Positions 39,290 to 62,133 of a stretch of DNA of 64,000 nt are shown one piece after another. The notes beneath the pieces are model-generated. The model was not told the DNA's origin. It made no database searches and worked only from the letters and a program-made list of their open reading frames with translations. A program made the position numbers and the translations under genes. Origin of the DNA: a virus (lineage: Duplodnaviria > Caudoviricetes); the IMG/VR virus record IMGVR_UViG_2751185828_000002, one strand, 5' to 3'. The first letter of the stretch is position 1. Every line of letters begins with the position of its first letter.

Positions 39290-39682
39290 TCACTTCCGGC
39301 GACCGACGCCGGCGGTCAGGATGACGGCGGTTGCGGCGACGGCGGCGGCGATGAGGCGGCGGCGGCGGTGCCAGAGCGCGGCGGCGGTGATCGCGCCGAG
39401 GGTGACGGCGCTCCAGTCCAGGATGCCGTCCCAGACCAGCGCCCACGACAGCCTGCGCTGCGGGCCTGCGGCCGTGATCAGCTGCCCGCCTTCCCAGCCG
39501 ACCAGATAGGCCATGCTCAGCACGGCAACGGCGTTCCAAGCCTCGCGGATGATCCAGATCGCCATGATCAAGGCGGTCAGCCCGGCGCCGATGGCCCAGT
39601 GTCCCATCAGGGCCGCCGCCCAGACATAGGGATCGGCCTGCGCCTCGGGGGTGGCGAACATGGCGCGGATCAGGGCGATCAT
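39290..39682 (-). CDS. Phage membrane protein (3-4 TM)
   Basis: 130 aa hydrophobic ORF coupled to the upstream gene. Confidence 0.65.
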   Translation of the reverse strand: MIALIRAMFATPEAQADPYVWAAALMGHWAIGAGLTALIMAIWIIREAWNAVAVLSMAYLVGWEGGQLITAAGPQRRLSWALVWDGILDWSAVTLGAITAAALWHRRRRLIAAAVAATAVILTAGVGRRK

Positions 39683-40488
39683 GCGCGTGCCCCTGCGGGG
39701 GCCGACAAGCTGAGCCCGTATTTGCCGGCCAAAGCCTGACGGATCACACTGATCTGCGAATCGAGGGCGGCGCTGCCGTCGGTGATCAGGGACACGATCT
39801 CAAAGACTGGCCCGGTCCAACGCGGGGATAGATTTGCCGGTTCACCACGCCCGATCACGTTGATCAACACCTTGTCGAGGCCGATGGCGGTGCCGGCCGC
39901 GTCCGCCTCGACCCCGTTCTGCCAGGCGCGCAGACCTGACGGCAGCAACTGCACCTCGTTCAAAACCATCTGCCCGACAGCACGAGGCAGCTTTCCGGTC
40001 GTCGAGCCTGCAAGGTTGATCGTCGAGGCGACAGACCCATCCGCGAAATTGCTATGGAAGAACCGCATCGTCCGGGCCGTTCCCCCATTGATGCTGGCCG
40101 GCCCGCCCAGGAAATAGACCTGTTGGCCGGAGGTGCGCGTCGCGACGACGAACAGGCGGACGCCGATAAGATCGGCCGGATTGGCCAGCATCAGGCTGCC
40201 GACATCCAGAGACAGCCCGCCGTTGACGATCGGAACGGCGGCATCTGCCGGGGCGGCGTCGAACATGGCGCCGGCGCCTCCGGCATTCGGGACCGCGGTA
40301 ACGTTGCCATCGGCCCCGACGGTGGCCCGCGACGCCGCGAGGTGGATCGGGACCTGACCGCGGGCAACGCCATAAAGGTCCGGGATCGTCAGCGGCCGCG
40401 TCCAGGCATAGCCGGGGCCTTTCAACGCCCTGATCTCGCCCATCGGCCCCTTGATCCGTTTGGCCCTGGTCAGGTCCAGCTTTGGCAT
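39679..40488 (-). CDS. Phage tail-associated protein, probable LamG/ConA-like beta-sandwich
   Basis: 269 aa, beta-rich, AWQNGV motif; follows the collagen-like gene. Fold is inference. Confidence 0.55.
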   Translation of the reverse strand: MPKLDLTRAKRIKGPMGEIRALKGPGYAWTRPLTIPDLYGVARGQVPIHLAASRATVGADGNVTAVPNAGGAGAMFDAAPADAAVPIVNGGLSLDVGSLMLANPADLIGVRLFVVATRTSGQQVYFLGGPASINGGTARTMRFFHSNFADGSVASTINLAGSTTGKLPRAVGQMVLNEVQLLPSGLRAWQNGVEADAAGTAIGLDKVLINVIGRGEPANLSPRWTGPVFEIVSLITDGSAALDSQISVIRQALAGKYGLSLSAPAGARA

Positions 40489-41083: not shown

Positions 41084-41383
41084 TCAGCAGCCCTTACGCA
41101 CGATCAGCACCCAGTCGCCATAGGCGCGCAGCTCTCCGCCCGGCCAGCGTATCCAGAGGGCGGCATGGTAGCGACCGGACGGCAGGTCCACGCTGGCAGG
41201 GGACAGTTCGAACGCGAACCCCTGGGCGTCAGGGGCGGCGGCGATCCGCAGGCAGACCCCGGCCGCTGCGGTAATCCGCAACTCGGCCGAGGCGCCGGCC
41301 AGATCGGCCAGCGCGCCCCCGGCCACCCGCGGGGCCACCCGCCAAGTCTTGGTCTCGCCAATCGTGTAGTCGATCGCTCTCAC
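41084..41383 (-). CDS. Small tail protein (BppU-N-like Ig fold)
   Basis: GTG start overlapping the upstream stop; [11 protein letters not shown] and [11 protein letters not shown] pattern. Confidence 0.55.
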
Positions 41384-41949
41384 GGCCTTACTCCGAAAAT
41401 CTCGTCCAGCGCCTCGTCGGTGACGCCCAATCCATAGGCTGCTGCGACGATCACGGGGTGGGTGCGGCTGATCTGGCTGTCCGTGCGCCATTTGATCCGT
41501 GCCGCCATCTGGGCATCGGCCGGCAGCGATGACATCAGCTCATCCATTCTGGCGGGGATGGCGCCCGCGGCGGCGTCCTCGGCCTCGGTAGGCGTCAGGA
41601 TGCCTGCGACGACCAGCCGGATCAGCAATTCGGACTTGTCGAGCGATGCTGTCCGGCGGGCGGCAGCCAGGGCCGCTGCGGCTTGCGCGGCAATCTCGGC
41701 CGGGCTGCGAGGATCGGTCCAGGCACCTGCGTCGGCATCCCACGTGTGATGATCTGATGGGCGGGCGGGATATTCGCGGCGCGCTGCAAACTGCTGCGCG
41801 TGGACCATCGCAAGCAGGGCCGGATAATCGGGATCCAGGGGAGAGGCCAGATCAACGCGCGTCTGGCCCGGCCCGACGTCCTGGTAATACTGGATGTCGG
41901 CATCACCCAGGAAATGCGCGCCGATCACAGGGGCATCTGGTATCATCAT
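41380..41949 (-). CDS. Tail fibre assembly/chaperone-like protein
   Basis: ATG at 41949 overlaps the tail-tip stop; RPSDHHTWDADAGAW...ISRTHPVI..LG..DEALDEIF. Confidence 0.6.
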   Translation of the reverse strand: MMIPDAPVIGAHFLGDADIQYYQDVGPGQTRVDLASPLDPDYPALLAMVHAQQFAARREYPARPSDHHTWDADAGAWTDPRSPAEIAAQAAAALAAARRTASLDKSELLIRLVVAGILTPTEAEDAAAGAIPARMDELMSSLPADAQMAARIKWRTDSQISRTHPVIVAAAYGLGVTDEALDEIFGVRP

Positions 41950-44900
41950 GACACCTCGTAAAGCGTCCACTTGATCTGATGGGCGGACAGCGACGTGATG
42001 CCCTGCGCCCACAGTTCGAAGATGATGCGCAGGTTCTGGGGATCGCTCCACCGGGTCAGGGGCGCGACATGGGCGACCCAGCCCCAGAGCTCAGCCCCCG
42101 TTGCGGACTGTGCAGTGGCTGTCGCGCCGACCATTCCTGCGACGGCGAGATAGGTCCGCTTCGCACCCGCCCAGGCGGAGATGCCGACGCTGGTCTCCGT
42201 ATAGACATAGCGGATGGGACCGGAGGTAAGCTGCTTGCCGTCGAGAAGCGTCGCTGTCGTCGCGCTGACATTGAACGTGCCGGTCTGAACCGCCAGTTGC
42301 CGCCTGATCTTGACCGAGTTGAACTCGGCCGAGCCGGCCTTGTTGATCTGCCAGCCGACGCCATCCTCGCCCGTGACGAAATTGCTCGACTGGATGATGT
42401 TGCCAATCTTGGCGTTCGTGATGATCCCGTCGCCGATCTGGGCGCTGTCGGTCAAGACAGCAGCGGTCTTGACCAACTGGGTTGCGGTCACAGTCCCGGT
42501 CTTGATCGAGGCGCCGTCGACGATGGTGCGGCCATAGTCAGCGTCCAGCTTGGTGCCGCCCTCATAGGTGGCGATGCAGACGTTATCCGTCGCCATCGCG
42601 ATCGAAAGGGTGCTTGTTGTCGTGAAGGCGTTCGAACCCTTGGCCCAGTAGATATACATCACACCGGATGACCAGGTGGCGTTGCCGGCCGGGATTGACC
42701 GGCTGACGGTGGCGCCGGTGTCGTCGATGTAGCGAATATAGCCAGCCGTCCAGGACACCTTGTTCGTGGACGGGCTGTTATGCTCGAACTGGATGCCGGT
42801 CAGTGTGATGTTGCGTGAGCCGATCTCGAGGGCATTGGCCTTGACCGTGTTGGCGCTGATGTTGCCGCCGTCAATCCGCGTTTCGTCGCCGCCCTTGCGC
42901 CAGTCGGACAGGGTTGTGGTGCCGGAAATCCTGATCTTGCCGGGGTCGATCTGGGTATTGGCCGCATTGATCCGCGCTGCGGGGTCTTCAGCCTGGTTCT
43001 TGATGGTGGCAAGGGGCTGGCCGTTGACGGTCAATGATCCGGTCAGCGCCGTGCCCGCCTTGAGCGTGGCTGCGCTGAGTTCGACGACATGGGCGTCGGT
43101 GATGAAAGCCTCCCTGATCGTCGCGATCGTCGCCAGGAGGTTCGGGGTATCAACGGCACGGGCCTTGATCGTGTCGGTGATGATCGAGTTGCCGTCGATG
43201 TAGGTAAAGCTGCCCGGCGCATAGGGCGTGGGCTCGCTGCGGCTCTCGGCCGAGCCTGTCTGCATCGGCTTGTGGACGAACAGATAGCTGTCGGTTTCAC
43301 TTTCGGTCGGCAGCTTGCGCAGGTTCAGAACTGCATAGGCTGTGCCCGCAGGTGCCTGACCTTTAACCCAGATACGCGGCCAAAGATCGGGTTGGTGGAA
43401 GACCCGCTGGCCGGCGGCTGCTCCGTCATTCCGGTATAGCCGAGCGTCGTGCCGTCTTCAGCCCGCCATTCGATCCGCAATTGCGCCTTGCATCGGTGCG
43501 TTGACAGTTGGACCGAAACCTCAAGCCATTCGCCAGGCGAGGTTGGCCAGCCTTGGCTTCCCTGTCCGGTATTGGCTGAGATACCCAGATAGCGGAGATC
43601 GGCATAGCCGCTGGACGCGCTGCCATTCTGACGGATGACGAGGGTCGGATAGGTCGGCCCGGCATAGGCCGATCCTGCAGAGCGGATAGCCAGCGGTTCG
43701 ATCTCGGCGCCGGCCCCACCGTTGCCGGTGAGCGCCCATCCGGCCGTGCTCGATGCGAAACTGCTGTTCTGAATGAAGTTTCCGCCGAACCCGACGGCAA
43801 GTTTCTGCGTGGTCACGGCACCCGCGTCGATGTGCCCGGCCCTTACAGCGTTCGCGCTGATCTTATCGGCGGTGATCGACCCATCGACGATCAGCTCGCC
43901 GCCGTTCTTGCGACGCAGGATCGGTTTCGTGGCAACGACGTTCGGAACGGCATTGGCACCCGCATAAAGACGCAGCCGAACATAGGCCGTGCCTGCCGGG
44001 GCCTCCGCCATCAGAAGTTGCGACACCTGCGGGCTGGTGCCAGAGGTGATGGAAGGGCCGCGGATTTCAGCGATCGCCGTCTTTGTGGCGTTGGAGAATT
44101 CGATGCTCACGCGCGCGTTGAACGCGCCTTCTGTCTCTCCCCGGAACACGGCCTCGGCGTAGAACTGATCGCCAGCTCGTGCCGGAACATAGGTGGCTCC
44201 GGCGGCAAGCGAACCCGTGCTCGGCAGGAACCTGATGTTGCCAGGCGATACGGCGGCGGGATTTCCGGCGTTCACCTCGATCTTGGATGTGTTTGTCCGA
44301 TGCCAGGCGTTCGCGTCATAGATCTGATCGTCCGCAACCAGGTTGGTCCAGTCGGCGACGGTCATCTTCGACGCGACGACCGCCCCCGCCGCCAGTTCGC
44401 GGGTATTGATCGCACCAGCCGCGATCTTTCCAGCAACCACCGCATCCGTGTCGATCTTGCTGGCCGTGATCGACCCATCGACGATCAGCTCGCCCTTGTT
44501 CTTGATGCGAACAGTAGGCGAGCCGAAAATGATGTTGCCATCCGTATCCGCCGCATAGACATAGAAACGGAAGCGGGCCTGGTAGGCGCCCGCCGGAACG
44601 GTCAGCTCCCCGGTGAAATCATTGGCTGTGTTGGATGTTCCGTTGACGGACGCGAAGGTCACGTTTCCACCGGACAGCGCCGCGTCGTTCTTGTCGTAAT
44701 AAACGATCTGGGAGAGGCAACGCATCTTCGTGCCGCCAGAACGGATCATCTGCGAGGACAGATAGAGGACATCGCCGGGGGTGACAGGGAAGAACCCGAC
44801 CGTGCGGCACGAGCTGTCAGCTCCTGTGGGGTTGTCGGCGGTGCGATAGAGCCAGCTTCCGACTGAGCGGATGCTGCTACTGCCCGTCACCTTCTGATGA

Positions 44901-47900
44901 ATCCAGGCGCCATTGGTGGAGATCCATGCGCTCGCATCCTGGATCTGATCGTCGGGAACGAGATTGGTGAAGTCAGCAATTGCAAGCTTGGAAGCGACGA
45001 TTGCGCCAGCCGCCAGTTCGCGGGCATTGATCGCGCCAGCGGCGATCTTTCCGGCCGTTACGGCATCGGCAGCGATCGTTCCCGCCGTCACGGCATCAGC
45101 GGCGAGCTTTCCTGCTGTCACGGCGCCAGCCGCGATCTTGTCGGCCTGGACCGCGCCTGCGGCGATCTTGGCGGCACTGACGGCGCCGGCATCCAGCTTG
45201 GCGGTGGTGATGGCGAGAGAGGCGATTTCATCCGCAGTGACAGCGCCAGCCGCGATCTTGCCCGTCACCACCGATCCGGCTGCCAGCTTTGGCGTCGTGA
45301 CGGCGTCGTCGCTGATCTGTGTGCCGACGATCTGCCCCGTGATCTTGGCGGCTGCAATGTCGGCAAGCTGGCTGTCGGACAGCTTGCCGGTGATCTTGGA
45401 CGCTTCCAGAGCCTCGACCTGTGCAGCTTTCACCAGCCCCGCGATGTCAAACGATGCAACTTCGGCCGTGTATTTGCTGCCGTCCCAGCGATAGAGTTTG
45501 CCGTTCCAGAGTAGCGAGGCTGTCTGCCTGGTCGTCGGCAGCGCCGCGCCCGTATGGATGGTGACAGGTTCGATTCCCGTGGCAAACTGGGCCGCAGCGA
45601 TCTTGCCGGACAGGTCGGCAGCATCGACCAGCGGAACATAAGCCGTGCCGTTCCATTTGTAGACACGGCCTTGCCAGAAGATCTGGGTCGTCAGCCTGGA
45701 TGCCGGCAGCGTCGCGCCTGCATGAACGGTGACAGGCTCGATTCCGGCCGCGAACTGCGTGGCCTGGATGGCCCCGGTCAGGTTGGAGGCGCTGACCAGA
45801 TCGACATAGGCCGTGCCGTTCCACACATAGAGCCGACCATTCCAAGAGATCGTGTCGGCCTGCCTGGTCGTCGGCAGAGCCGTGCCAGTCCACACCTGGA
45901 TCGGCTGAACCCCATTGCCGAAGCTCGTGGCATCGACAAGCCCCTTGAGCTTTTCGGTCGTGATCGTCGGGTCGGGCGCGGCGACCGCAGCCTTCGACAC
46001 ACTCGCAGTCCAGCCCGAGATATTGCCTGAGGTGTCCACGGCCCGGATGCGAACATAGCGCAGCTCGCTGTCGGGGACTTCGGTGATGACCGCGCTGGCC
46101 GCCGGGGTGCGGCTCGTGACGGTGCTTGGGTTGTTGGTCTTGCCGACCGCGACCTCGTAGTGGCTGAAGTCGGCCTCGGTGTTGCGGTTCCACTCGATCC
46201 AGATGGTGTTGAACCCGGCAGTGGCCCTGAGGCCGGTCGGGATGGCAGGCGGCACCGTGTCGCGCGCGACCGTGTGGGTTGCCACGGGCGACCAGTTCGA
46301 GCGGTTGCCGACCCGGTCCACACGACGGCGGCGAACCGCATAGGACGTGCCGGGGGTGACGCCCTGCCAGGTATAGCGGGCGCCAGAAGTCTGGGCGTAC
46401 AGCGGATTGCCGCCCGCCTCGGTGATCTCGAGGTCGGAATACACCGCCTCGGCATCATCCGCCGCCCAGCTTGCCGTCAGCGTGCTGGGGGTGGAACTCA
46501 GCGTTACCAAAGGCGGCGTATCGGGCGCAGTGGTGTCAATGTCGGACGAAGGAACCACAATGGCGGGCGTCGAGAATGCCGTCCAGTCGGTCCAGCTGAC
46601 CGCGCTTCCATCTGCGGCCACGAACGAGATGCGCGCCTCATAGGCGGTCAGCGGCGTGAAACCGGGGGAAATGATTGTCTCGCCTTCTTCGGGACTGCCC
46701 ATCATGCCGCGAGCGGCGTCGGTCTGCCCGGCCAGGCGTGTTTCCCACCGAACCGCGGTGATGCCGTCCAACGCCCAGCCTCCCCAGCGCAGGCGTGCCG
46801 CGACCCCGCGAGGGCTGCCCCTGACCTTCAGCGCGATCCCCTCGGCCGTGAAGAACTGCGGCACCGCCGGGGACGGCGTCGGTCGCGTCACCGGCGCGAT
46901 CGTCGAAGGCAGCTTGAAATCCGGCTGCCAATCATAGTCGGCAGGATCGACCTCGGTGACCGAGATGGTGACGTTGAGCGTCAGGGGGTCCTCGGAAATC
47001 TCGAACACTTCGAACAGCTTGGTGTCGTAGCCGTTCTCGGTGCTGGACCAGGCGATAACGTCCAGCGGCTCGAGCGCCTCGGCGTCGGGCGGCAGGGTGA
47101 ACTCGTGGCGGCGGAAATGCCGCTCTTCCTCAATCATCGCGCGCATGATGCGCTGGACCTGATCACCCCAGGGACAGGCCGGCATCGTCAGTTCGGCGAC
47201 AAGGCGGCGCCCCTGGTCGGCTGTCTCCCAGCCAGCATTGTATCGGGGAGGCGCGTCCTTCGAGCGCCATAGCTGGGCCGGCTCGGGATAGGTGGCATGG
47301 ACCGCGTTATAGGTTGCCTCCAGCCCCGGGAACGGGGTGGCAGTGGCGTCGGCGTCCAGGATCAGATCGTCATCGGTCAGGAAGTAGACCGGCGCAGCGG
47401 GAGGGCCGACCCGCACGCGCCAGACCCCGCCGACCTCGGCCACTTTGGCGCAGCAGACCTTGAGCACCTCATCCAGCACCGACGCGGGCTCTTCGTCGAT
47501 CGATACCTCCCACGCCGCCTGCCATCGCGGCTTGCCGTCCACCAGCTGGTCCGCGGCGGTCATCGCCGGCGCCCATACCGAATAGGGAAGCGCCTCGGCC
47601 GCCACTCCGTAACCCCAGAGCGGGCCACCCTCGATCGGGATGCCGCGCAGGATATTGTAGGCCAGGACGATGCCGTTGGTGGTTGTCGCCCAGGTCGCCG
47701 GGTTGTCCCAGCGCTGCGTGCCGGAGCCGCCCGCTGTGCTGTCCTTGCGCGGATCGTAGAGCGGCGTGCCCCGCATGACGAACCGGCACCGCGGCAGGCC
47801 GCTGAAGCTTCTGGTGCTGTAGCGGAAGGTCAGGATCGCATAGCAGGTGCCGACCCCGACCATGTCCGCCGTCCAGGGGCGCTCAGACTTCTCGGCCCAT

Positions 47901-48502
47901 TTGGTGCCCGGACCATAGACCTGCAGCAGATAGGGATCGGCCGCGGCCTGGGTGCCGTCGCAATAGCGCAGCCAGACCTTGTCCTTGTATTTCTCGGTCC
48001 TGATTGGCCGACCCGGCGTGATCAGCGGACGCAGTGCCGACCCGGCGTTGGGCGCGGCGGGGTCGATGCCCTGCTGGACATACCACCAGTCGGGCTTGCC
48101 CGCAGGCACGGCGCCGCCCTGCGGGATTGTCTCGTCCACAGTCTCGAACTCGACCTCGGTGTCGTCGATGATTACCTTGTCGATCTGCTGGCGCGGCACG
48201 TTCCCAAGGTCGATGACATAGGTCAGATAGGCGTTCGACCAGTCGTCGAACCTGCCATGCGACATCGGCGGGCAAACCATATGGCCATCGGTCGCATACC
48301 AGCCCAGCACGAAGGTCATCGGCTTGTCGCCGCCGTCGGTGGTGTATTCTGTCTTGATGCCCTGCTGGACGGGCTTTGCCATCTTCTTCTGGATGGCGGT
48401 GCTGATCGCGCTGACCGCGACACTCAGCAGTAGACGGCCGATCAGGGCACTGCCGCCTGCGGTGGCCCAGGCAGTGGTGACGACGGCGGCGACGGCAGGC
48501 AT
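41946..48502 (-). pseudogene. Giant tail-tip/host-specificity protein (gpJ-like, ~2185 aa), -1 frameshift at ~43389
   Basis: ORF 43325..48502 (J-like N-terminus, FN3-like domains, repeats) continues into 41946..43265 if one base is added at AAC CCG AT CTT TGG (restoring NPDLWPRIWVKG). Confidence 0.8.
45410..45913 (-). repeat. Three tandem 168-bp (56-aa) repeats within the tail-tip gene
   Basis: GVQPIQVWTGTALPTTRQ.../GIEPVTVHAGATLPASRL.../GIEPVTIHTGAALPTTRQ...; TGCCTGGTCGTCGGCAG occurs at 45525 and 45861 (2 x 168 bp apart). Confidence 0.85.
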
Positions 48503-48912
48503 CAGCGCACCCCCAGGATGGTGCCGGCGCGGTCGATCGACACAAGGCCGAGACCGCGGCCGCTTGCCGGCAGGACATAGACCAGCTCGCCCTGGACGAT
48601 GCCCAGGGCGCGATCGTCATCGGTTTGGACGATGGCCAGATCAGCGGGCATGGCCTGACCGCGGGGCACGGGGGGATGCGACTGGACGGCGGCGTCGATG
48701 TGATCCACGAACCCGGCCGCGCGCATCAGCCGCAGCCCTTCGGCGCGTGTCCCATAGCGGCCGCGCCACTTCGCCGCCGGATCGTGGCCCGTCACCGCCT
48801 CGACCCCGCCGGCCGCAAACAGCGCACAGTCGTGGCGCCCCCAGGCAAACTGCTCGCGCGAGGCGCGGGCCAGATAAGAAGACAGGCGGGCCTCCCAGTT
48901 GTAGAGCCTCAT
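48502..48912 (-). CDS. DUF6950 / NlpC-like tail tip protein
   Basis: FAWGRHDCALFAAGGVEAVTG motif. Confidence 0.75.
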   Translation of the reverse strand: MRLYNWEARLSSYLARASREQFAWGRHDCALFAAGGVEAVTGHDPAAKWRGRYGTRAEGLRLMRAAGFVDHIDAAVQSHPPVPRGQAMPADLAIVQTDDDRALGIVQGELVYVLPASGRGLGLVSIDRAGTILGVR

Positions 48913-49520
48913 TTCGAGCCCACTTGACCGGCACCGCGCCCGAGATGTCCGTGTACTGGAAGAACCTGTCAGGACCGCCTCCCGGCAGCTTGCGCAGACG
49001 CCCCGAGCCGTCCGATTTTTTCAGCGACAGCTTGCGCGTTCCGGCCCGCGCCGAGGACACGATCGACAACTCGCACGATCCTTCGCCGCCATCGCCCGCC
49101 GTCCTGATCTCGATCTTGTTGACCCAGCCGCGCAGCCGCAGCACAGGGCTGCCGACCGCCTGCATCGTGACCGGGTTGATCACGAGGCGATGGATTTCGA
49201 CAGGTGCCTGGCGCACGTCATAGCCCCGGATTTCCATTTCGACCTCGGGCGCAAGCGGCGACAGGCGCGCCTTGGTGGTGCGCACGTCGGTGCCGACGCC
49301 GGCCCGGATGGGGATCGACGGCGATCAGGCTGCCGGCCCCGTAATAGGCGCGGGTCTGGCCGTCGACCACGACGTCCTGGTGATCATCGCCTGTCCACAA
49401 GCCGAGCGTCTGGACGGCATTCGTGGACCGATTGCGGCCGCTGATCCAGACCAGCAGGTGCGGCATGATCGGCTGGCGGGCGGCCAGATGGTTGGTGAGG
49501 GCGGCGGGACGTGCTTGCAC
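48909..49520 (-). pseudogene. Tail hub (gpL-like) protein with frameshift(s)
   Basis: An extra base in the G-run 49310-49313 breaks VDP-IRAGVGTDVRTTK. A probable missing base at 48919-48921 removes the WGSK-stop that would couple to the next ATG. Confidence 0.6.
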
Positions 49521-50187: not shown

Positions 50188-50546
50188 CAGAGCTGCCTCG
50201 GGTCGGATTGAAGCGCACGCAGCCGCTGCGGCAGCCTGTCATCGTATTCCCGGATCGCTTGGGCCAGGGCATCCTTGTAATCGGCAACGACATAGTCGGG
50301 CGGGTCCCAGCGGTGCAGCTGATAGCGGGCGATCGCGGTTGCCCAGGTCCGCACCAGGTCGGGCACCTGCGGGAACGGCAGCTGGTATCGCCCGGCCAGA
50401 TAGCCATCGACGATGTTGTCGGCATGAACCAGGGCAGCCCCGATGACCTCGGGATCGGGGATCAGATCGCCGTCGCGATCGGCAACCTGGACGATCTCGT
50501 CCATGCCGGCGCGTTCGACCAGATCCTCGAGGCTCGCATAGGTCAT
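50187..50546 (-). pseudogene. Mu gp36-like (DUF1320) protein fused to a foreign C-terminus (deletion scar)
   Basis: MTYASLEDLVER...IVDGYLAGRYQLP...IARYQLH...YKDALAQ is gp36; the following AIREYDDRLPQRLRALQSDPR does not fit gp36. Confidence 0.65.
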
Positions 50547-50549
50547 GGG

Positions 50550-50789
50550 TCAGTCGTCCAATGAAGGTTTGACCGGGGTCTGCCTGGGCAGCCGTGCAAC
50601 CGCGCGGTTCACAGCCATGAAGCCTTGCTCGATGTGGGTCCGGCCGACAGACAGCCAGCGCTGATCGATCGAACCCAGTCGGGCAAGCTGGTCCAGTTGA
50701 TGCAGGACAGCCTCTTCGAGGCGGCCGTTTTCGGCGGTGATGCGCAGCGGGTCGTTACTCGTCGGCCAGCCCTCGGGGGAAATGGACAT
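50550..50789 (-). CDS. Acb2/Vs.4-like anti-CBASS sponge protein
   Basis: 79 aa; EEAVLHQLD...DQRWLSVGRTHIEQGFMAVNRAV matches the recalled Acb2 C-terminal helix RWxxIAxTxIQxGxMALxRA; RBS GAAGGA. Confidence 0.65.
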   Translation of the reverse strand: MSISPEGWPTSNDPLRITAENGRLEEAVLHQLDQLARLGSIDQRWLSVGRTHIEQGFMAVNRAVARLPRQTPVKPSLDD

Positions 50790-50852
50790 TGACGGATTGA
50801 TCCTTCGATTGCGGGGGTTGGCCGGGCGGGTGCCACCGCCCGGCCGGGTCGG

Positions 50853-51323
50853 TCACTTGCCGCGCTTTTTCGGCGCGGTGTCGGTGACCTCGCCGCCGGC
50901 GGGATCGGCGGTTTCCGGTTCGGCGGTCGTGGCGGCGACGGCCAGATCGTCCCGTTCGGCTTGCACGGCAGCCAGCTGGGCCTTCAGGCTGTCCCGTTCG
51001 GCCTGCGTTTCCGACAGCTGCAGCGCCAGCTCGTCAGCGCGGCGGCGTTCGTTGTCCAGCTCGGCCGTGGTTTCGGCCATCGCCTCGGCAACCTTCTGGC
51101 CGACGAGGGTCTCGGCCATCGCCCGCGCCTTCTCGTGCAGCACGGGGTCTTCGCCGGCCTGCGCGTCGCCAAGGTCCACCTCGGGCAGGCCAGCGAGGGC
51201 GCCCAGCTCGACCAGCTGCAGTGCGACGCTCATGGTCACTTCGACCTGGTCGCCGGCCTTCCGGTCCTCGCCATCAAGCTTGACGGGACCGGTCAGCGTC
51301 ACGGTGATCTTGCGGTTCGGCAT
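50853..51323 (-). CDS. Head-associated protein with coiled-coil C-terminus
   Basis: VTLTGPVKLDGEDRKAGDQVEV...LQLVELGA N-terminal motif directly after the capsid gene. Confidence 0.65.
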   Translation of the reverse strand: MPNRKITVTLTGPVKLDGEDRKAGDQVEVTMSVALQLVELGALAGLPEVDLGDAQAGEDPVLHEKARAMAETLVGQKVAEAMAETTAELDNERRRADELALQLSETQAERDSLKAQLAAVQAERDDLAVAATTAEPETADPAGGEVTDTAPKKRGK

Positions 51324-51334
51324 GATCAGTCCCC

Positions 51335-52288
51335 TCAGGCCGCCGGCGCGCCGGCCGACTGGAACAGGAACCCGGCGTCGGCACCAACAACATAGGGGCG
51401 GCGCTCGACCGTTGTCGGGTAGATCCACGACTTGGTCGGCCGGTCGTAATAGGGCTCCTCGACCTGCGGATAGCCCTCCAGCTCGTAGGTATAGCCGTAG
51501 GACGGCGCGCCGTAGGCCTGGCCCTGCTGGGGCACATAGGCCAGGATCGCGTCATCACCCCAGATGTCGGTCGCGGCGTCGGTATCCAGAGCGGTCTCGG
51601 GCAGATAGACGCCCTTGCCGACCACCACCTTCTCGACATCGAAATACGCCGCCAGCATGTCGACGGTGATGCTTTCCTTGGTGGTGTACTTGAACTGCTC
51701 GCGGACCGACGGATGGTCGACCAGCGCGTTTGCAGCGGTCGGGCCGAGCTGCAGCACGTTCGGATAGCGCCCGATGTTGCGGCGGATCACCTCGCGCGCG
51801 GCGCGGACGTCCGACAAGGGCTTCGAGGTCGCCGAGGTCCAGCGCGACGTGCCCGCCAGCGCAGCCCTGTTCGAGGCGGCATAGGTATTGACGTCGCGGG
51901 CGATGCGCGCCGCTTCGTATTCTAGGCCCAGGTCCACGACACCCATGACCATGTCGATGGCGCCGGCGCCCAGGTCCACACCCGGCGCGCCCTCGGCTTC
52001 CTGCTGGTGCTCGACCGGCACCACGCCTTCCAGCGCGTCCTGGACCAGGCTGATCGGGTCCGAGGCGTAGCCGTACTGCACGCGCTTGACGTTCGCGCCC
52101 GGCGCGCGCCGGGTCGAGATCATGCGAAAGCCTTCCTTGCCGAAGCGGATGACCCGCATGTTCCGGCTGGGCACGGGCACGCGCGGGAACAGCGCCTGCG
52201 AGACGAACTCGAGGTTGCGATAGCCGCGGGCATGGGTGGACAGGATGGCGTCGACGACGCCGGCGGTGCGGGTATTCAGTGCAGGCAT
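51335..52288 (-). CDS. Major capsid protein (Mu-like prophage, gpE-family)
   Basis: VDAILSTHARGYRN...LFPRVPV...FGKEGF...PSYGYTY; follows protease and cement genes. Confidence 0.85.
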   Translation of the reverse strand: MPALNTRTAGVVDAILSTHARGYRNLEFVSQALFPRVPVPSRNMRVIRFGKEGFRMISTRRAPGANVKRVQYGYASDPISLVQDALEGVVPVEHQQEAEGAPGVDLGAGAIDMVMGVVDLGLEYEAARIARDVNTYAASNRAALAGTSRWTSATSKPLSDVRAAREVIRRNIGRYPNVLQLGPTAANALVDHPSVREQFKYTTKESITVDMLAAYFDVEKVVVGKGVYLPETALDTDAATDIWGDDAILAYVPQQGQAYGAPSYGYTYELEGYPQVEEPYYDRPTKSWIYPTTVERRPYVVGADAGFLFQSAGAPAA

Positions 52289-52301
52289 CAGCCGTTCTCC
52301 T

Positions 52302-52640
52302 TCAGCGGACCAGGACGAGGACGTAGCCGCCTGCGGTGGCGGCATTCAGCGCGCGGCCCAGCGGGTTCGCCGGGGTTGCACCCGCTGCCTGGACCGTGCC
52401 GGGGGTTGCCCCCGAAACGACGATCTGGCCAGCGGTGATGACGCCCGCCGCCTTGCAGCGGAATGCCCCGATCGCGATGACGGCAACGGCGTCGCCGACG
52501 GCGGCAGGGTTGCGGGCCCAGCCTTTCACCGGAGCATCAACTGCGGCGACAGGCGCGTCATTGAAGCCGACCAGGTCGCCCTCGGCGATGGGGGCCGTCG
52601 CGACCGCGGTCAGCGACAGGGTGTCGTGGAAATGGTTCAT
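52302..52640 (-). CDS. DUF2190-like capsid cement protein
   Basis: 112 aa; ATAPIAEGDLVGF...AAGVITAGQIV...LGRALNAA. Confidence 0.75.
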   Translation of the reverse strand: MNHFHDTLSLTAVATAPIAEGDLVGFNDAPVAAVDAPVKGWARNPAAVGDAVAVIAIGAFRCKAAGVITAGQIVVSGATPGTVQAAGATPANPLGRALNAATAGGYVLVLVR

Positions 52641-54731: not shown

Positions 54732-54759
54732 GAGGCGGCGTTGGCACTGTCGCCGCCTC
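54732..54759 (-). other. GC-rich hairpin overlapping the stop codon of the MuF-nuclease gene
   Basis: On the - strand: GAGGCGGCG-ACAGTGCCAA-CGCCGCCTC (9-bp perfect stem, 10-nt loop); no poly-U tail follows. Confidence 0.7.
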
Positions 54760-56335
54760 ATTTTCTGCTTCTGCACCAGATGAGTTTTCCTGAACGCTTG
54801 GGCTTCAATGCTTGCACGTTAGGACCTTTCCTGTCGGCAGAAATATGCGTCGTATTCGGCGACCACCATTTCCCGGCAAGCTCAAAACCCGCGACCAATC
54901 CGTGAGTCTCCCCGTCGATCTCGGCCACACGCACATAGGTGCGGCCCACGATCATCCGTCCAGCGTCGTCGCGACGAACCTGCAGCCAGATTTCGTCGGG
55001 ATCGAGAATGGCGTGTGGCAGCCAGGGGGTGAAGCTGGTGCGATCACGCTTGCCAGTTTTCGACGTCCCGTCGCGCTGTCGAAAAAGGTCGGCCGAGATG
55101 GCGATCCGATGGCCTGCCACATCTTCTACCAACCGTTCCTGGTCCATGGCACTGAGGCCGAAAGCATTCAGGAACTGCGCGGCCGCTTCATACCCCTCTT
55201 CATCGAAGCCGAATGCCGGATCGAAAGAGGCAAAGTCGAAGACCGCAGGCTGGGGCGGCAAGGGGCGCCGCGCCGCAATCAGCTGATCCAGTGGCGAGGG
55301 CTGGTCGATCGCGACGATACTCTTGCCCGCGCGCTCTGTCCCTTCCTTGATCAGCACCGACGGCACGAGCCCCTTGGTCCAGTGATCGCCCGGCGCATAA
55401 TCCCAGCCGTATCCCACGCCGTCGGGCTGATCGATCACCTTGCCGGTCTGGCGATCGACGATCGGCCGGGTCCGGGTTTCCGGCGCCAGGTCCGGCCCGG
55501 TCTTCTTCAGACGCGCCAGATCGCGCTCGGACAGGGTCCGCACGCCGCAGCTGCACAGCCAGTCGTTCGGGGGAAAGTGGACGTCCCACCAGGGATCGTC
55601 GTGCATCAGCACCAGCCCGTCCCAGGACACATGCTGGGGGCGCGGGTTCAGCGGGGTGCCGTTTTCGCCGTGGCGATACTGCCAGTAAGGCCGCATCTTC
55701 ACGACTGCCGGCGCGCGCATCTGCTTGAGCCGACCCGCCATGTAGCTGGTGCGCAGGTTCGTCTCGAAGATCGTTCGGATGCGCCACTCACGCCCGCCGT
55801 TGTATGACCAGCCGTACTTGTCCACGATCTCGTCGAACCGGGCGGCGAAGGCGTCCCGATCCCAGTCGGTGGCTGCCTGCTGAACTGCTGTGAAGAAATC
55901 ATCCAGCATCGCCGCATCCTTGGCCCCGGCGATGACGAAAGCGCGGTCGTGCTGGCCGCGCATGAGGTCGGTCCAGGTGTCGGTCTGCTGGGGCTGCTTC
56001 TGCTTCAGGAAGGCCAACTGCTCGTCGAAGCTCTGCCCGATCCCTTCGGCCTCGCCGGCAAAGCCCGCCGTCTCGGCCAGCTCGTCGAGGACCTCGCCCC
56101 GGCCGGTCAGCGCCATCAGCTCGAGCGCCTTGCCGATATGATGCGCCTGGGCATCAGGCGTCCAGATCGCCGCAAGTTCCAGCAGGTTCCGCATCGCCTC
56201 ATCGGCCCCGTCGGCAAGAACGGCGGTGCGGACCGCTCGCAGCCTGGCTTCACCGATCGGCGCCAGCAGTGCGATCAGCTGGTCGGCGGCGCGCCGAACG
56301 GGATGGTCCGCCTCTGCAAAACAGACATGCTTCAC
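54758..56335 (-). CDS. Mu gpF head morphogenesis protein with C-terminal PBECR2-like nuclease domain
   Basis: RAFVIAGA, IFETNLRTSYMAGR, RPQH.SWDG..L..DDPWW...FPPNDWLCSCGV (MuF); C-terminal ILDPDEIW...RTYV...KRSGKLIW (PBECR2, recalled). Confidence 0.8.
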   Translation of the reverse strand: MKHVCFAEADHPVRRAADQLIALLAPIGEARLRAVRTAVLADGADEAMRNLLELAAIWTPDAQAHHIGKALELMALTGRGEVLDELAETAGFAGEAEGIGQSFDEQLAFLKQKQPQQTDTWTDLMRGQHDRAFVIAGAKDAAMLDDFFTAVQQAATDWDRDAFAARFDEIVDKYGWSYNGGREWRIRTIFETNLRTSYMAGRLKQMRAPAVVKMRPYWQYRHGENGTPLNPRPQHVSWDGLVLMHDDPWWDVHFPPNDWLCSCGVRTLSERDLARLKKTGPDLAPETRTRPIVDRQTGKVIDQPDGVGYGWDYAPGDHWTKGLVPSVLIKEGTERAGKSIVAIDQPSPLDQLIAARRPLPPQPAVFDFASFDPAFGFDEEGYEAAAQFLNAFGLSAMDQERLVEDVAGHRIAISADLFRQRDGTSKTGKRDRTSFTPWLPHAILDPDEIWLQVRRDDAGRMIVGRTYVRVAEIDGETHGLVAGFELAGKWWSPNTTHISADRKGPNVQALKPKRSGKLIWCRSRK

Positions 56336-57029
56336 GCCGGCGGCTCCCCGGCCTCCCGCGGCGCCGGCTCGGGCATGGGGACTACGACAGGCGCGCCCTT
56401 GAGCGCCGCGCGCCCCTCGACCAGCTTGCGCAGGGCCGCCTCGCTCAGCCCTTCGACAGAAGCGAGGTGCGGCAGCAGTTCCAACGCGATCGCGTCGTCC
56501 TCCACATTTGCCAGGAACGACAGGGCGTCGCGCAGGGCCGCGGTCCGCGCCTTGTTGGTCTCGGCCTTGGCCTTGCCGACGCTGGCCGTCTCCAGTTCGT
56601 TCTCAGGCCGCGGGCGCCACACATTCGGAACGCGCGCACCGGGCAGGTTGTAATCGACGATCCAGGCGACCAGCGACTGCCGCAGCGTGGCCGACAGCAG
56701 GTCCGCGTCGCTGTCAACCAGAAGCTCGAGGATCTCGGCGTGGGTTTCCGATGCCGCACGAGAGCCGTTCGCGCCGATGTCCGTGGTCAGCGTCTCGCCG
56801 GTGACGCAGATCGCGATCTCTTTATCCCAGTAGGCCAGGAAGTCGCTGTAGGTCACCGCCCCGGATCGGGCCGCCTCGAGGAACTTGACGTCGGTGCTGA
56901 CCGGGACCACCACGGCCGAGGAACTGCGGATGTTCTCGAGCGTGTTCAGCAGGCGAGTCTGCTCGGCCGTCAGCTGGCCATAAGGCGACTGCGCGATCGG
57001 CGCGGCGGGTGCAGCGGCGGCTTTCGTCA
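56332..57029 (-). pseudogene. 3' fragment of Mu gp29-like portal (DUF935)
   Basis: FLAYWDKEIAICVTGETLTT...GSRAASETH...DADLLSATL...LVAWIVDYN is the DUF935 C half; upstream of ~56990 the frame no longer resembles portal. Confidence 0.8.
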
Positions 57030-57939: not shown

Positions 57940-58902
57940 TTAAAGGGCCATTCGGCTCTGTCGTTGCTCGAAGACATGCTTTTCGCCCGCCATTATGCGG
58001 CGATGAAGGTCAACGAGATCAGTTCCCTCGTCCGCGAACCGAAACGCGGATGCAGCGATGTAATCCCGCCTCTCCTCGAACGCCAGCCAACGGCGGCCCT
58101 CACGCTCCGCGACCTCCCCAGTCGTGTTGGAACCAGCGAAGATGTCGAGAACGGTATCTCCGGGGTCTGTCAAGAATCGGATGAAGAACTCCGGCAACCT
58201 TCCGGGGAACCGGGCAGGGTGGCCTTTCTCGCCAGTGGCCTTACATCCCGCCATATACCGGCCATTCGACTCGCTATTGGGGAAGGAAAGCAGGTTGGGC
58301 GGTATGGCCCCACCGTTGTCCTTTCCAAACCCAGCCCCGATGTCGTGCCCGGAAGGGCGAACTTTTGGCGTGTAGAACTTTGCCGGGTCCTCGATTAATT
58401 TCTTCATCCGCTCGGAATAAGGAGTAAGGACATTGGCGACATTGGCCTTGGGCCATGCCGTCTTCGAGAGCCACCACACGGTGTTCACGCTGTCTTTGGT
58501 TCGAATCTTACGCTTATTCACCCACTCGATTGGAGAAGGCAATTTTGAAGGGTTATGCCAGTAAAATTCTTCGGCCAGCGAGAAGCCGATCTCGTCCACG
58601 AATTTCAGGAGGACACGGAACGGATAGAGCGAGCGCACGGGCACGCCCCGCTCGTAGGCTCCGCCTATGTCGATGACGAACGAGCCGTCGGGCGTAAGTT
58701 TCTGGAAAACAAGGGCCCCAAACTCCGCCAGCCAATCGACATACTCGTGCTGTTCCGCGTTGCCATACTCTTTCTTCCGAAGGAGGGCGAACGGGGGCGA
58801 TGTTATGACAAGGTTCACCGAGTCGTCGGGCAGGCCCCGGAGGAGGTCCCGTGAGTCGCCTACGAAGGCCTGGCCGTAGTGTGTGCGGTAAGCGAGGGTC
58901 AT
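57940..58902 (-). CDS. pvuIIM: N4-cytosine methyltransferase, M.PvuII homologue
   Basis: TSPPFAL.RKKEYGN.EQHEYVDW, NPSKLPSPIEWVNKRKIR, RPSGHDIG, HPARFP, DIFAGSNTTG are nearly identical to recalled M.PvuII segments. Confidence 0.95.
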   Translation of the reverse strand: MTLAYRTHYGQAFVGDSRDLLRGLPDDSVNLVITSPPFALLRKKEYGNAEQHEYVDWLAEFGALVFQKLTPDGSFVIDIGGAYERGVPVRSLYPFRVLLKFVDEIGFSLAEEFYWHNPSKLPSPIEWVNKRKIRTKDSVNTVWWLSKTAWPKANVANVLTPYSERMKKLIEDPAKFYTPKVRPSGHDIGAGFGKDNGGAIPPNLLSFPNSESNGRYMAGCKATGEKGHPARFPGRLPEFFIRFLTDPGDTVLDIFAGSNTTGEVAEREGRRWLAFEERRDYIAASAFRFADEGTDLVDLHRRIMAGEKHVFEQRQSRMAL

Positions 58903-58906
58903 ACGC

Positions 58907-58932
58907 TACTCATAGGCTGTAGACTCATAGTC
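58907..58932 (+). promoter_or_regulatory. Tandem C-boxes
   Basis: TACTCATAGGC-TGTA-GACTCATAGTC fits the GACT-N3-AGTC-TGTA-GACT-N3-AGTC C.PvuII-type operator, between the divergent M and C starts. Confidence 0.85.
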
Positions 58933-58955
58933 GGCAATAGCTTCTTCCTCGGGCG

Positions 58956-59189
58956 GTGAAACAAGACACTCCCCTTGCCAGAAAACTGTTCGCGAACAAC
59001 GTCCGCCGGGAGCGGGCAGCTCGTGGCTGGTCGCAGGAGGTGCTCGCCGACGCTGCCGGGCTTCACCGAACCTATATCGGGTCGGTCGAGAGATGTGAAC
59101 GAAACATCTCCATAGACAACATCGCTCGTGTCGCCGCCGCCTTCGGGGTGTCTCCGGATGCTCTGTTGAGGGACAATGAGGACGAATAG
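58956..59189 (+). CDS. pvuIIC: Controller (C) protein, XRE HTH
   Basis: [31 protein letters not shown]; overlaps the start of the R gene as in PvuII. Confidence 0.9.
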
Positions 59190-59760
59190 GTTTAGGCCAC
59201 ACGCCGACGCGGAAGAACTTAAACGGCTTTGGCCGGCCGTCTGCAAATACCAGGAACTTGCGGCACGACATGGCATCGACGACATCTTCCAAGACAACGG
59301 GGGAAAGTTGCTGCAAGTCCTTCTGCTGCTGGGACTGACAACAATTCCGGGCCGGGAAGGAAACGACGCGATGGACGCGGCGGGACTTCAATACGAGTTG
59401 AAGTCGGTGAACCTAAACCTGACCGGCTCCTTCTCGACGCATCATCACATGAATCCGGTCATCATCCGGAAATACCGGGAAGTCGAATGGATCTTCGGAG
59501 TCTACCAGAATATCGAGCTGAAATCAGTTTATCTGCTCTCCCCGATGGATATGGAGCCTTATTACACGAAGTGGGAGGCGAAATGGCACGCGTCTGGCGG
59601 CAAGGACATTAACAATCCGAAGATCCCAGTCTCATACGTCACAAGCGTTGGAAAGCTTATCTGGGGCGCGGCGCCGCCGAAGGTCGTGCGGGTGAAGCGC
59701 GTGCCCACCAATCCGCGCAAAAAACCGCAGAACCCAGAACTGCCGGATGGCACGGAATAA
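59176..59760 (+). CDS. pvuIIR: Type II restriction endonuclease, R.PvuII homologue (predicted CAGCTG)
   Basis: [54 protein letters not shown] match recalled R.PvuII. Confidence 0.95.
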
Positions 59761-59880
59761 TATCTTGCTGCGTGGTGCGATAAGGTAGAGCGCCGTTTTT
59801 TTCCAGAGGCTGAAAGCCTTGGTTGGGGTTTCGAAAGGGGGAAAATACCGTTAGGGATTTTCGCCCCTTCGCCGGAGATA

Positions 59881-59926
59881 CATAACGGAGCCCCTTGGGG
59901 CGTAGTTATGTATAGTAGGTTATGAT
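59881..59926 (+). promoter_or_regulatory. Candidate MOB_V oriT / RSA site
   Basis: CATAAC...GTTATG inverted repeat with inner CCCC-TT-GGGG, then TATAGTAGGTTAT (cf. pMV158-family TATAGTGTGTTAT), directly before the relaxase ATG. Confidence 0.6.
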
Positions 59927-61351
59927 ATGGCGAAGCCACCACTTAATGAGATTGCCAAAGGCAATCCCCGTGCCGCGTCAACGCGGCTGGCCCTTCTTAA
60001 TGTTGCCCGCCTCGCGGGTCAACGAAAACATGACCTGCGGATTGGCGCGAAGCAGCCCGCTTATATCGATCCCGACAGGAAAGAGCTTAATCGGTTCCTC
60101 ATCCCTCACGCGACACCGGCGGCAATGAGAACGCTATGTGAAGGGCGACGCGCAATCCGGGACACGCGGCGCAAGATGAAGCGCAACGCGGCGGTGGCAG
60201 CAGGCGGGATCATCACGTTCGGGGCGGAGGCGGCGGCTCTTTTTGCCGCGTTGAAGCCGGAACAGCAGGACGCCGCTTTCATCGATCTGGCGCACGAGAT
60301 CGCGGAACGGCTTAACACCACGCTTCACGGCCTGACCGTTCATCTGGACGAGTCGACGATCCACGCTCACTATCAACTTGCGGCCTACGACAAGGACGGG
60401 GTGCCGCTCTCGCGGTCCACGGCCCCGCGCGTCATGTCATGTCTTCAAGACCTGACGGCGGAGGTGATGGCCCGCCATTGCCCCGGGATCGAGCGGGGGC
60501 ACAGATACGGCGAGCGGATCGAGAACGGAGCGGATTTCCGGGACACGCTTCACCGCTCCGTGCAGGAACTCCATCGTGACCTTCCCCGCGATCTGGCGGC
60601 GAAGCGCGCGGAGGTGGAGGAACTGGCCGCCGCCGTGGCAGACGCGCAAGCGCGCGTTGACGAGATTGAGGCGCGCGTCAGCAAACTGAGAGAGAAGGCC
60701 GAACTGTCGGACAGGGAGGCGAAGCGGCTCGCGACATACGAGAAGCGGCTTGCTGACCGAGTGGCGGAACTTGAAGCGGCCCAAGCGGCGGCAGAGAGCG
60801 CCAAGTCCGAGGCTGACCGGCTCGCCGGGATCGCCCGTCAGGAGGCCCAGACGGCGGCGCAGACGCGTGATGAGGCGACGGCGGAGGCCGAGGCGGCCAG
60901 GGCGACGGCCGCGCGCGTCGTGGGGGCTTTGACCGTTCTCGCGGAGGAAGCCGCCGCCGGAACGATCTCGCGCAACCCCGAAACAGGCAGGGTTCAGGCG
61001 CTAAACCCGGAGGGCCTGAAATCGGGTTATCCCGAGTTGAGACCCGCCGTGATCGCCACCGCCGACGCGATGACCGCCAAGAAGCGTCTCGAAGTAGAGG
61101 CCGCAGCAGACCGCCGCAAGGCCGCCAAAGAACTTGAAGAGGCAGAGGCGGCTCGCAAGGCGGCGGAAGATGCGTGGGAGGAGGTGAGGGGCCTCCGTAA
61201 GCGTCTTCGCAACGCTCTGCGGGCTATCAAGTCTTGGTTGACGCGTCCTGACCTCCCCACCGCTGCGAAATGCGCCGGGGAGGCGCTTGTGAAGGTGATC
61301 GAAGAGGAACCACGCATGACCGATAATATCAACGAAGCATTAAGCCCATAA
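59927..61351 (+). CDS. MobV/Pre family relaxase (plasmid recombination enzyme)
   Basis: KHDLR (catalytic His), GIITFG, VHLDESTIHAH (HxDE/HxH), long coiled-coil C-terminus. Confidence 0.9.
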   Translation: MAKPPLNEIAKGNPRAASTRLALLNVARLAGQRKHDLRIGAKQPAYIDPDRKELNRFLIPHATPAAMRTLCEGRRAIRDTRRKMKRNAAVAAGGIITFGAEAAALFAALKPEQQDAAFIDLAHEIAERLNTTLHGLTVHLDESTIHAHYQLAAYDKDGVPLSRSTAPRVMSCLQDLTAEVMARHCPGIERGHRYGERIENGADFRDTLHRSVQELHRDLPRDLAAKRAEVEELAAAVADAQARVDEIEARVSKLREKAELSDREAKRLATYEKRLADRVAELEAAQAAAESAKSEADRLAGIARQEAQTAAQTRDEATAEAEAARATAARVVGALTVLAEEAAAGTISRNPETGRVQALNPEGLKSGYPELRPAVIATADAMTAKKRLEVEAAADRRKAAKELEEAEAARKAAEDAWEEVRGLRKRLRNALRAIKSWLTRPDLPTAAKCAGEALVKVIEEEPRMTDNINEALSP

Positions 61352-61373
61352 GTGAACATCCCGAGTGTTCACT
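61351..61373. repeat. Inverted repeat AGTGAACA-N7-TGTTCACT between the convergent mob and rep 3' ends
   Basis: Perfect 8-bp arms; same TGAACA/TGTTCA core as the array at 62065-62133. Confidence 0.7.
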
Positions 61374-61394
61374 TGTGAGACGAATTGTGACAGT

Positions 61395-61985
61395 TTACTC
61401 GAATGCTTCCGCCAGTTCTGCGATGAGGTCGGAAATCGGGTCAGCCTCCGATTTCTTCACCGGAGTCTTTTTGCCTCTTCGGGTCGTCTTCTGTTTCGTC
61501 GCTGTTGGCTTCTTCGTGTCCCTCATTCCCAGCATCCGGACCTGCGTTTCAAGTGCTTCTGTGTCTCGCCGCAAAACGAGAGACTGCGTGTGAAACGCGG
61601 CATACTTCTTGTTCTTGTCCGCGCTCTTCCACACTTCTTCCGGGTTCATCGCGTAAATGAATGCCCCCGTTCCCATCTTGAAGCGCACAACAACCCCGTT
61701 GTTAACCAGAAATTCCGCTGCCCTGCGTGCTGTCATTTTTGAGATGCCGAGCGCCTCCGCCATCGTGTCGTAAGATACACACACCGCTCCTCCGAGAGGC
61801 GCGATATGCTTCGCCAAAAACGCATACAAGCGCGCTACATGCGGGCTTTTGGAAGGCAGGCTCAACATGACATCCCATCCTTTTGGATAAACCTGAACAA
61901 AGTCCCGATTTTTCTGCTCGGTTTCCGCAACTACCTCTTCCGCATGCGATGTGAGAATTTCCTCATGTCTCATTGCTGTCTCCAT
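61395..61985 (-). CDS. wHTH replication protein, pBBR1-Rep / RepL-like
   Basis: FVQ...ARLYAFL...AVCVSYDTMAEALGISKMTARRA..L...YAMNPEEVW aligns with recalled pBBR1 Rep (WVQ...AVVVSQKTL..LIG.S.RTV...YVVN.RVAW). Start may be 61973. Confidence 0.7.
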   Translation of the reverse strand: METAMRHEEILTSHAEEVVAETEQKNRDFVQVYPKGWDVMLSLPSKSPHVARLYAFLAKHIAPLGGAVCVSYDTMAEALGISKMTARRAAEFLVNNGVVVRFKMGTGAFIYAMNPEEVWKSADKNKKYAAFHTQSLVLRRDTEALETQVRMLGMRDTKKPTATKQKTTRRGKKTPVKKSEADPISDLIAELAEAFE

Positions 61986-62064
61986 GTTAAAGGTCGGCTC
62001 TTCAATCGAATCGTCACAAGTCTGTCAACATAAATTACAGAATTCGAAAAATTTGAGTTTCGGA

Positions 62065-62133
62065 GTGTTCATCTGGTGAACACTTCGGGTGTTCACAGCT
62101 ATGAACACTCGGAGTGTTCACAACTGTGAACAC
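62065..62133. repeat. Three tandem palindromes GTGTTCA-N5/6-TGAACAC upstream of rep (iteron/operator-like)
   Basis: Units at 62065-83, 62089-108 and 62114-133 (24-25 bp period), flanked by AT-rich DNA. Confidence 0.85.

Follow-up and report, generated by a model that had tools for sequence, protein, structure and literature searches.

Among phage counter-defences, Acb2 sponges, which take up the nucleotide signals of bacterial immunity, have been studied in depth, and the residues that set their ligand range are an active question. The stretch of viral DNA analysed here (64,000 nt, referred to as the window) contains a short reading frame that a first-pass annotation had described as an Acb2-like sponge with divergent ligand-pocket residues, retained in a dead Mu-like prophage. 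The locus therefore raises the questions of whether the ORF is a true member of the Acb2 family and, if so, what a member with such residues could still bind in its present setting.

The reading frame and its upstream signals

The gene and the signals that precede it are as follows.

50550-50789 (-): Acb2-family ORF of 79 aa with an ATG start, supported by Pfam, phmmer, alignment and AlphaFold2 (AF2)
50801-50806 (-): Shine-Dalgarno-like GAAGGA, 11 nt before the Acb2-family ATG, by direct reading
50820-50845 (-): G+C hairpin with a perfect 10-bp stem and a 6-nt loop, between the stop of the gp43-like gene (50853) and GAAGGA

Indeed, all of the elements listed in the first-pass annotation (the 79-aa ORF, its own ribosome-binding site and an upstream hairpin) were found. 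By direct reading the ORF contains DQRWLSVGRTHIEQGFMAVNRAV, and no other in-frame start would make it longer. The gene for a Mu gp36-like protein begins 3 nt past the stop codon, which places the ORF within an operon, and no sigma-70-like promoter was found between 49800 and 51600.

The hairpin was considered as an intrinsic terminator and rejected as such, as a T-run is absent and the fold energy is ordinary for the G+C content (z = -0.8). The same hairpin DNA is identical in the viral contig that carries the nearest related module (IMGVR_UViG_2693429863_000004, hereafter L039, at about 7915-7945), while the sequence immediately downstream is unrelated. A different hairpin occupies the equivalent place in Rhodobacter phage RcapMu (L120, about 8905-8935). 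The window hairpin may stabilise the mRNA or act in attenuation, and may also mark a recombination boundary.

Assignment to the Acb2 family

A profile search for Acb2/Tad1, the first check that had been proposed for this ORF, gave PF24729 (Acb2_Tad1_hairpin) as its sole Pfam match, at 45.8 bits (E=6.9e-12, residues 23-66) against a curated cut-off of 27 bits. A scan of the whole genome with PF24729 identified a single gene, the same ORF, and NCBIfam gave no match for it. Among PDB sequences, phmmer matched only the Acb2 of phage PaMx33 ('p26'; 8IXZ/8H2J) at E=1.3e-5, aligning ORF residues 26-66 onto chain residues 47-88. A word-indexed search of 5.8 billion clusters recovered 15 relatives of 70-93 aa, all of them with PF24729, and an exhaustive phmmer search of 1.84 billion representatives gave 337 matches, 124 of which were used to build a subfamily profile. 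This profile matched PaMx33 Acb2 at 7.9e-12 and T4 Vs.4 at 2.1e-5, and placed the G-Y and N-K motifs of the subfamily on Y11 and K26 of PaMx33 Acb2, respectively.

Modelling with AF2 from the subfamily-profile alignment predicted a helical hairpin (pLDDT 86) with arms of lower confidence, the N-terminal arm reaching pLDDT 62. Foldseek ranked Acb2 and Vs.4 chains first for this model, and VIA-align gave Z 7.0 for Vs.4 and Z 6.5 for Acb2, with many unrelated hairpins within 1 Z unit. Since the hairpin fold is common, the structural match is supportive only, and the Acb2 assignment rests on sequence. The commonness of two-helix hairpins, with unrelated chains scoring that close to Acb2, is also what might recommend the opposite reading, that of a chance ORF or of a helical-hairpin protein that is no sponge. 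That reading is nevertheless extremely improbable: the sequence matches are specific, 24 of the 37 columns conserved in the subfamily are kept, and the gene occupies a slot common to RcapMu and more than 100 viral contigs. The profile matches effectively refute it.

Membership of the Tad1 branch was likewise considered. Tad1 proteins have about 125-150 aa and an extra domain for the gcADPR pocket, and the ORF encodes 79 aa and the hairpin only; PDB searches with the single sequence and with the subfamily profile returned no Tad1 match. Judged by its sequence, the ORF is a true Acb2-family homologue, as the original identification had it, and belongs to the short (about 80 aa) subfamily found in RcapMu-like transposable phages of Alphaproteobacteria. 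It is an unusual Acb2 of a known family, not a new system.

The dinucleotide-pocket residues are replaced and the trinucleotide-pocket Arg/Thr pair kept

In PaMx33 Acb2 hexamers, cyclic dinucleotides are held between the N-terminal parts of two protomers through base stacking by Y11 and salt bridges from K26, and either Y11A or K26A abolishes cGAMP binding (PMC10312549). A second pocket holds cA3 or cAAG through R67 and T74, with A70 and I71, and R67A/T74A affect cA3 binding; across Acb2 proteins Y11 and K26 are a highly conserved pair and R67 and T74 are variable (PMC10312549). L14 and P90 of PaMx33 Acb2 contact the base as well (10.1101/2025.08.24.671296). In T4 Acb2, dinucleotide binding is disrupted by Y8A and diminished in F82C, a mutant that escapes Panoptes; P84Q is a further escaper, for which binding was not reported, and Y8A likewise fails to trigger Panoptes (PMC11974786). 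The first-pass annotation stated that Acb2 hexamers also sequester gcADPR. This holds in a narrower form: some homologues bind 3'cADPR instead, through a different N-terminal strand and without CBASS inhibition, and the property is known only for these homologues, not for Acb2 in general (10.1101/2025.08.24.671296).

The corresponding parts of the window copy are listed below.

Residues 1-13: N-terminal arm
Residues 14-37 and 43-65: the two helices of the hairpin (AF2)
W8, T10, G22 and L67: dinucleotide-pocket positions
R44, S47, V48 and T51: trinucleotide-pocket positions

For comparison, ORFs from 115 loci (35 genomic and 80 viral) encoding relatives of the window copy, almost all of them alphaproteobacterial, were aligned to the subfamily HMM. 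At the column equivalent to PaMx33 Y11 and T4 Y8, 111 of 113 related loci have Tyr and the window copy has W8. The column of PaMx33 K26 is Lys in 114 of 114 related loci, and G22 here; the C-terminal Pro, equivalent to PaMx33 P90 and T4 P84, is invariant (115/115) and is L67 here, with a Pro moved to position 68. A Gln found in 110 of 115 loci, aligned to PaMx33 L14, is T10. W8, G22 and L67 are each unique to the window copy among the 115 loci, and one residue is deleted between W8 and G22. The divergent GW-P and NG motifs had thus been read correctly, and they are outliers. In the broader family, Trp was found at the Tyr column in none of 163 representatives, and 3 of about 159 have Gly at the Lys column, all three without an aligned N-terminal motif. 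A compensated frameshift was rejected as the origin of the odd N-terminus: the other two frames contain nothing resembling GYRPQ or NK, and the N-terminal DNA identity to L039 is near random.

The second pocket presents the reverse picture. R44 and T51 lie seven residues apart on helix 2, with S47 and V48 as neighbours; R44, W45 and T51 are the consensus of the 115-locus alignment, and S47 and V48 are minority states that recur in it. The E-P-G kink motif of PaMx33 is absent, and I-D-Q precedes the Arg instead. In T4 Acb2, D61R still fails to bind cA3, for steric reasons (PMC10312549), so that an Arg/Thr pair alone is no guarantee of cA3 binding. Counted over the 37 columns conserved in 85% or more of the alignment, the window copy has 13 mismatches, 12 of them in the 14 conserved columns of the arms and 1 in the 23 columns of residues 25-62 (Fisher p=6e-7).

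These replacements could be taken as conservative, in which case the window copy would still be a canonical cyclic-dinucleotide sponge that uses Trp8 for Tyr and Arg23, or another basic residue, for Lys. Both substitutes preserve the chemical role (aromatic and basic), the 15-residue spacing of W8 and R23 equals that of Tyr and Lys in homologues, and 3 of about 159 family representatives have Arg in place of the Lys. However, Arg23 is not a compensating change, since the nearest relatives have it next to a retained Lys (NKR), and it is one residue out of register with the invariant EE of helix 1. Trp occurs at the Tyr column in no other member, and the conserved Gln and the invariant Pro are lost too. 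Retention of the canonical activity is accordingly judged quite unlikely. Some dinucleotide binding may nonetheless remain, as Trp can stack like Tyr and an Arg follows Gly22; this was counted against a full loss of the pocket.

Evolution of the arms and the core

The proteins of the module are closely related to those of L039, with identities of 92% for the capsid protein, 84% for the gp36-like protein and 85% for the portal fragment. At the DNA level, identity is about 100% through the hairpin and 35-46% over the ribosome-binding site and codons 1-26 (46% for these codons); it rises to 76% in codons 27-66 and falls again, to about 44%, in the C-terminal tail. Relative to L039, dN/dS was 0.08 for the capsid gene, 0.16 for gp36 and about 0.15 for the Acb2 core; for the Acb2 N-terminus it was about 0.4, with dS saturated. 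At 69-79% core identity, other pairs of homologues share 35-74% of their N-terminal residues and pairs that include the window copy 13-30%.

The confinement of the changes to the arms, over a constrained core, is not what neutral decay spread evenly over a gene in a dead prophage would give. More in keeping with it is a core held under constraint for a long time, with the arms that form the dinucleotide pocket replaced or subject to relaxed or directional evolution. The variant also persists in a population: a near-identical allele (P0017; Q34R, T71A) that retains both W and G is present on 11 further contigs, bringing the window allele and this near-twin to 16 contigs together.

The same pattern bears on a second alternative, that of a retargeted sponge, in which the replaced arms would form a new vertex pocket for another signal, whether ADPR-derived, as in Thoeris, or another cyclic nucleotide. 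The changes are confined to the arms that build the pocket, with purifying selection acting on the core, the abrupt fall and partial recovery of DNA identity to L039 fit segment replacement or fast evolution, and retargeting of an Acb2 pocket is documented in the 3'cADPR-binding homologues (10.1101/2025.08.24.671296). Against this, no protein other than P0017 shared the window-copy N-terminus among the 5.8 billion clusters, and back-translated EGWPT(S/T)ND gave 2 viral and 40 metagenome matches in IMG/VR and JGI metagenomes, none of which encoded an Acb2-like ORF. There is thus no sign of a successful lineage. The low confidence of the modelled N-terminal arm and the lack of a candidate signal-producing system in the host also count against retargeting, which is considered unlikely.

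The window-copy protein was not found in 36 species of the same genus, which indicates that the island is lineage-specific. Three same-genus species (L122, L123 and L124) carry other, distantly related PF24729 genes that retain the Tyr and Lys; a Y-R...I-K N-terminal motif is clear in two of them.

The surrounding prophage is defective

The ORF lies in a Mu-like head module with the order portal, MuF, Mu G-like (Phage_tail_S), protease, scaffold, major head, DUF7210 protein, Acb2 and Mu gp36-like, in which the portal and MuF proteins matched Portal_Mu and Phage_Mu_F. This order equals that of RcapMu genes 36-45, gp44 being the Acb2 homologue. The position in a head module noted at the first pass is thus borne out, and corresponds to the RcapMu gp44 slot, with a capsid-adjacent gene on one side and the gp36-like adaptor on the other. 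The relevant features of the module are the following.

50853-51323 (-): RcapMu gp43-like gene (DUF7210 and coiled coil), between the capsid gene and acb2
51335-52345 (-): major head protein (phrog_1005), the 92%-identical counterpart of that of L039
50187-50546 (-): Mu gp36-like head-tail adaptor, with homology that stops after residue 95 of 119
50205-50262 (strand not applicable): deletion junction, about 6 kb lost, from comparison with L039 and RcapMu
48641-49520 (-): tail gene (phrog_2048), split into two frames at about 49311
56338-56991 (-): C-terminal fragment of a Mu-type portal, with about 275 N-terminal residues missing

In L039 and RcapMu, the interval missing at 50205-50262 holds the tail genes through to the tape measure. 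The junction has replaced the 3' end of the gp36-like gene, which is now joined to a distal-tail-like gene. In the portal ORF, homology starts no earlier than 56991 (Pfam Portal_Mu positions 174-310), and the 213 codons of that reading frame upstream of this point match nothing. No terminase was found between the portal fragment and the element encoding methyltransferase, MobV, Rep and integrase. With the portal N-terminus lost, the terminase absent, a tail-gene deletion of about 6 kb and a frameshift in one further tail gene, the prophage is a defective remnant unable to make virions, and its description as dead is upheld.

The element that bounds the prophage at the portal gene is integrative and mobilisable (57940-64000), and may have truncated it there. 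Over 57940-64000 and L119:336-410, genes for an N6/N4 DNA methylase, a Mob_Pre relaxase, a RepL-like wHTH protein and a tyrosine integrase adjoin a tRNA-Asn, which abuts the integrase element just outside the window end.

Several other genes of the remnant were recorded. The MuF-like head protein (54758-56335, -) carries a C-terminal PBECR2 (Barnase-EndoU-ColicinE5/D-RelE-like) nuclease domain, matched by Pfam at 88.6 bits. A 1725-aa tail fibre/host-specificity protein (43325-48502, -; phrog_5616 at 519 bits, and several tail-fibre families) has survived whole in the remnant, which has lost the genes for the tube and the tape measure. Between a defence cassette and the tail-fibre genes lie ORFs of 130-437 aa (37430-38743, 39290-40488 and 41084-41491, all -), none of which gave a Pfam, PHROG or NCBIfam match.

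Possible targets in the host

The host is probably an alphaproteobacterium, as are almost all carriers of homologues. Its genome (3.03 Mb in 2 contigs, 99.96% complete) was searched with models for SMODS (CD-NTase), TIR_2, ThsB_TIR, mCpol and Csm1 (Cas10), and none of these matched. The SAVED model also had no match, a weak negative as the SAVED control matched no control genome. Among 60 species of the same genus, SMODS was present in 7 and other PF24729 genes in 3, and mCpol was found in none. In the host itself, no cyclic-nucleotide immune system that matches the sponge was detected, and the suggestion that the protein, if expressed, could blunt host CBASS or Thoeris finds no target in this genome. 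Escape from Panoptes was considered as a rationale for the altered arms and set aside, with mCpol found neither in the genome itself nor in the 60 same-genus species, and no local support.

Interpretation

The probable explanation is that the window copy is a relic member of the Acb2 family with a disabled or remodelled dinucleotide pocket, carried as a passenger in a dead prophage. Canonical members form hexamers in which the N- and C-terminal arms of two protomers enclose cyclic dinucleotides, the pocket being provided by the stacking Tyr, the salt-bridging Lys and the C-terminal Pro; cyclic trinucleotides are held at a second site lined by the Arg and Thr of helix 2. In the window copy the core helices and the Arg/Thr pair are intact and both arms have diverged, Tyr, Lys and Pro being replaced by Trp, Gly and Leu. 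Such a protein should still fold and probably oligomerises; canonical cGAMP-type binding would be weakened or lost, and binding of cyclic trinucleotide (cA3) may survive. As a passenger gene in a remnant that cannot yield virions, in a host with no detectable target, it probably does nothing useful at present. Counted against the relic explanation are the persistence of the variant in a population, as shown by P0017, and the fact that variability across the Acb2 family is in any case greatest at the termini.

A bolder form, regarded as rather unlikely, holds that the window copy is an Acb2 with inverted conservation, in which the trinucleotide pocket is kept and the dinucleotide pocket has been lost or built anew, making it a trinucleotide-only sponge or one for another vertex signal. 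If this were true, the sponge would evade sensors of decoy-dinucleotide sequestration.

In the present setting of a dead prophage and a host with no cyclic-nucleotide defence, biological importance is unlikely. The interest of the gene is as a natural experiment, in which three positions have been replaced together with the second pocket and the core conserved. Substitution of the Tyr or the Lys abolishes dinucleotide binding in model proteins, and substitution of the Pro lets T4 escape Panoptes. The window copy could be an inexpensive test case for telling the two Acb2 pockets apart.

Comparison with known systems

The likeness to Tad1 (e.g. CbTad1, PDB 7UAV) is confined to the shared Pfam Acb2_Tad1 hairpin; at about 125 aa and with an extra domain, Tad1 gave a weak and partial structural match only (Foldseek E about 3, 44 residues). 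Structurally, T4 Vs.4 (Acb2; PDB 7UQ2) matched best (Z 7.0, rmsd 3.1 A over 62 residues), at a low identity of 14%, and it has in common with the window copy the contiguous layout of an N-terminal GY..K..E helix. Vs.4, which binds dinucleotides only, retains the dinucleotide residues; in the window copy they are missing.

The Acb2 proteins of PaMx33 (p26; PDB 8H2J, 8H2X, 8IXZ) and JBD67 are homologous to the window copy in the helix 2 motif RW..(G)(K/R)T..Q/E.G.MA..RA, with R67 and T74 corresponding to R44 and T51, and resemble it in small size, location in a phage structural operon and predicted hairpin. The window copy differs from PaMx33 Acb2 in being about 15 residues shorter, without the insertion after K26, and in the changes Y11 to W8, K26 to G22 and P90 to L67.

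A further comparison is with RcapMu gp44 (AER29966.1), which shares the slot (capsid, gp43-like, acb2, Mu gp36-like) and the length class, and the alphaproteobacterial subfamily of roughly 80 aa to which it belongs, with about 55-65% identity to the window copy and a nearly identical core, IDQRWL..GRT.IEQGFMAVNRA. Homologue 16 in Table S2 of Hadary et al. 2025, a protein of 93 aa that inhibited both CBASS systems tested (10.1101/2025.08.24.671296), has the motifs of this subfamily. RcapMu gp44 itself (L120:8962-9252; L033, R. capsulatus SP108) is an unannotated Acb2 homologue, recorded as 'similar to cyclic-nucleotide binding domain'. All members of the subfamily have G-Y-x-P-Q, N-K and F/A-x-P-x-R, and the window copy alone has G-W-P-T, N-G and A-R-L-P-R, with the one-residue deletion. 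RcapMu gp44 shows the opposite of the window-copy pattern, with the Tyr and the Lys kept and an Ile at the position of Arg67 (DKIWLQ).
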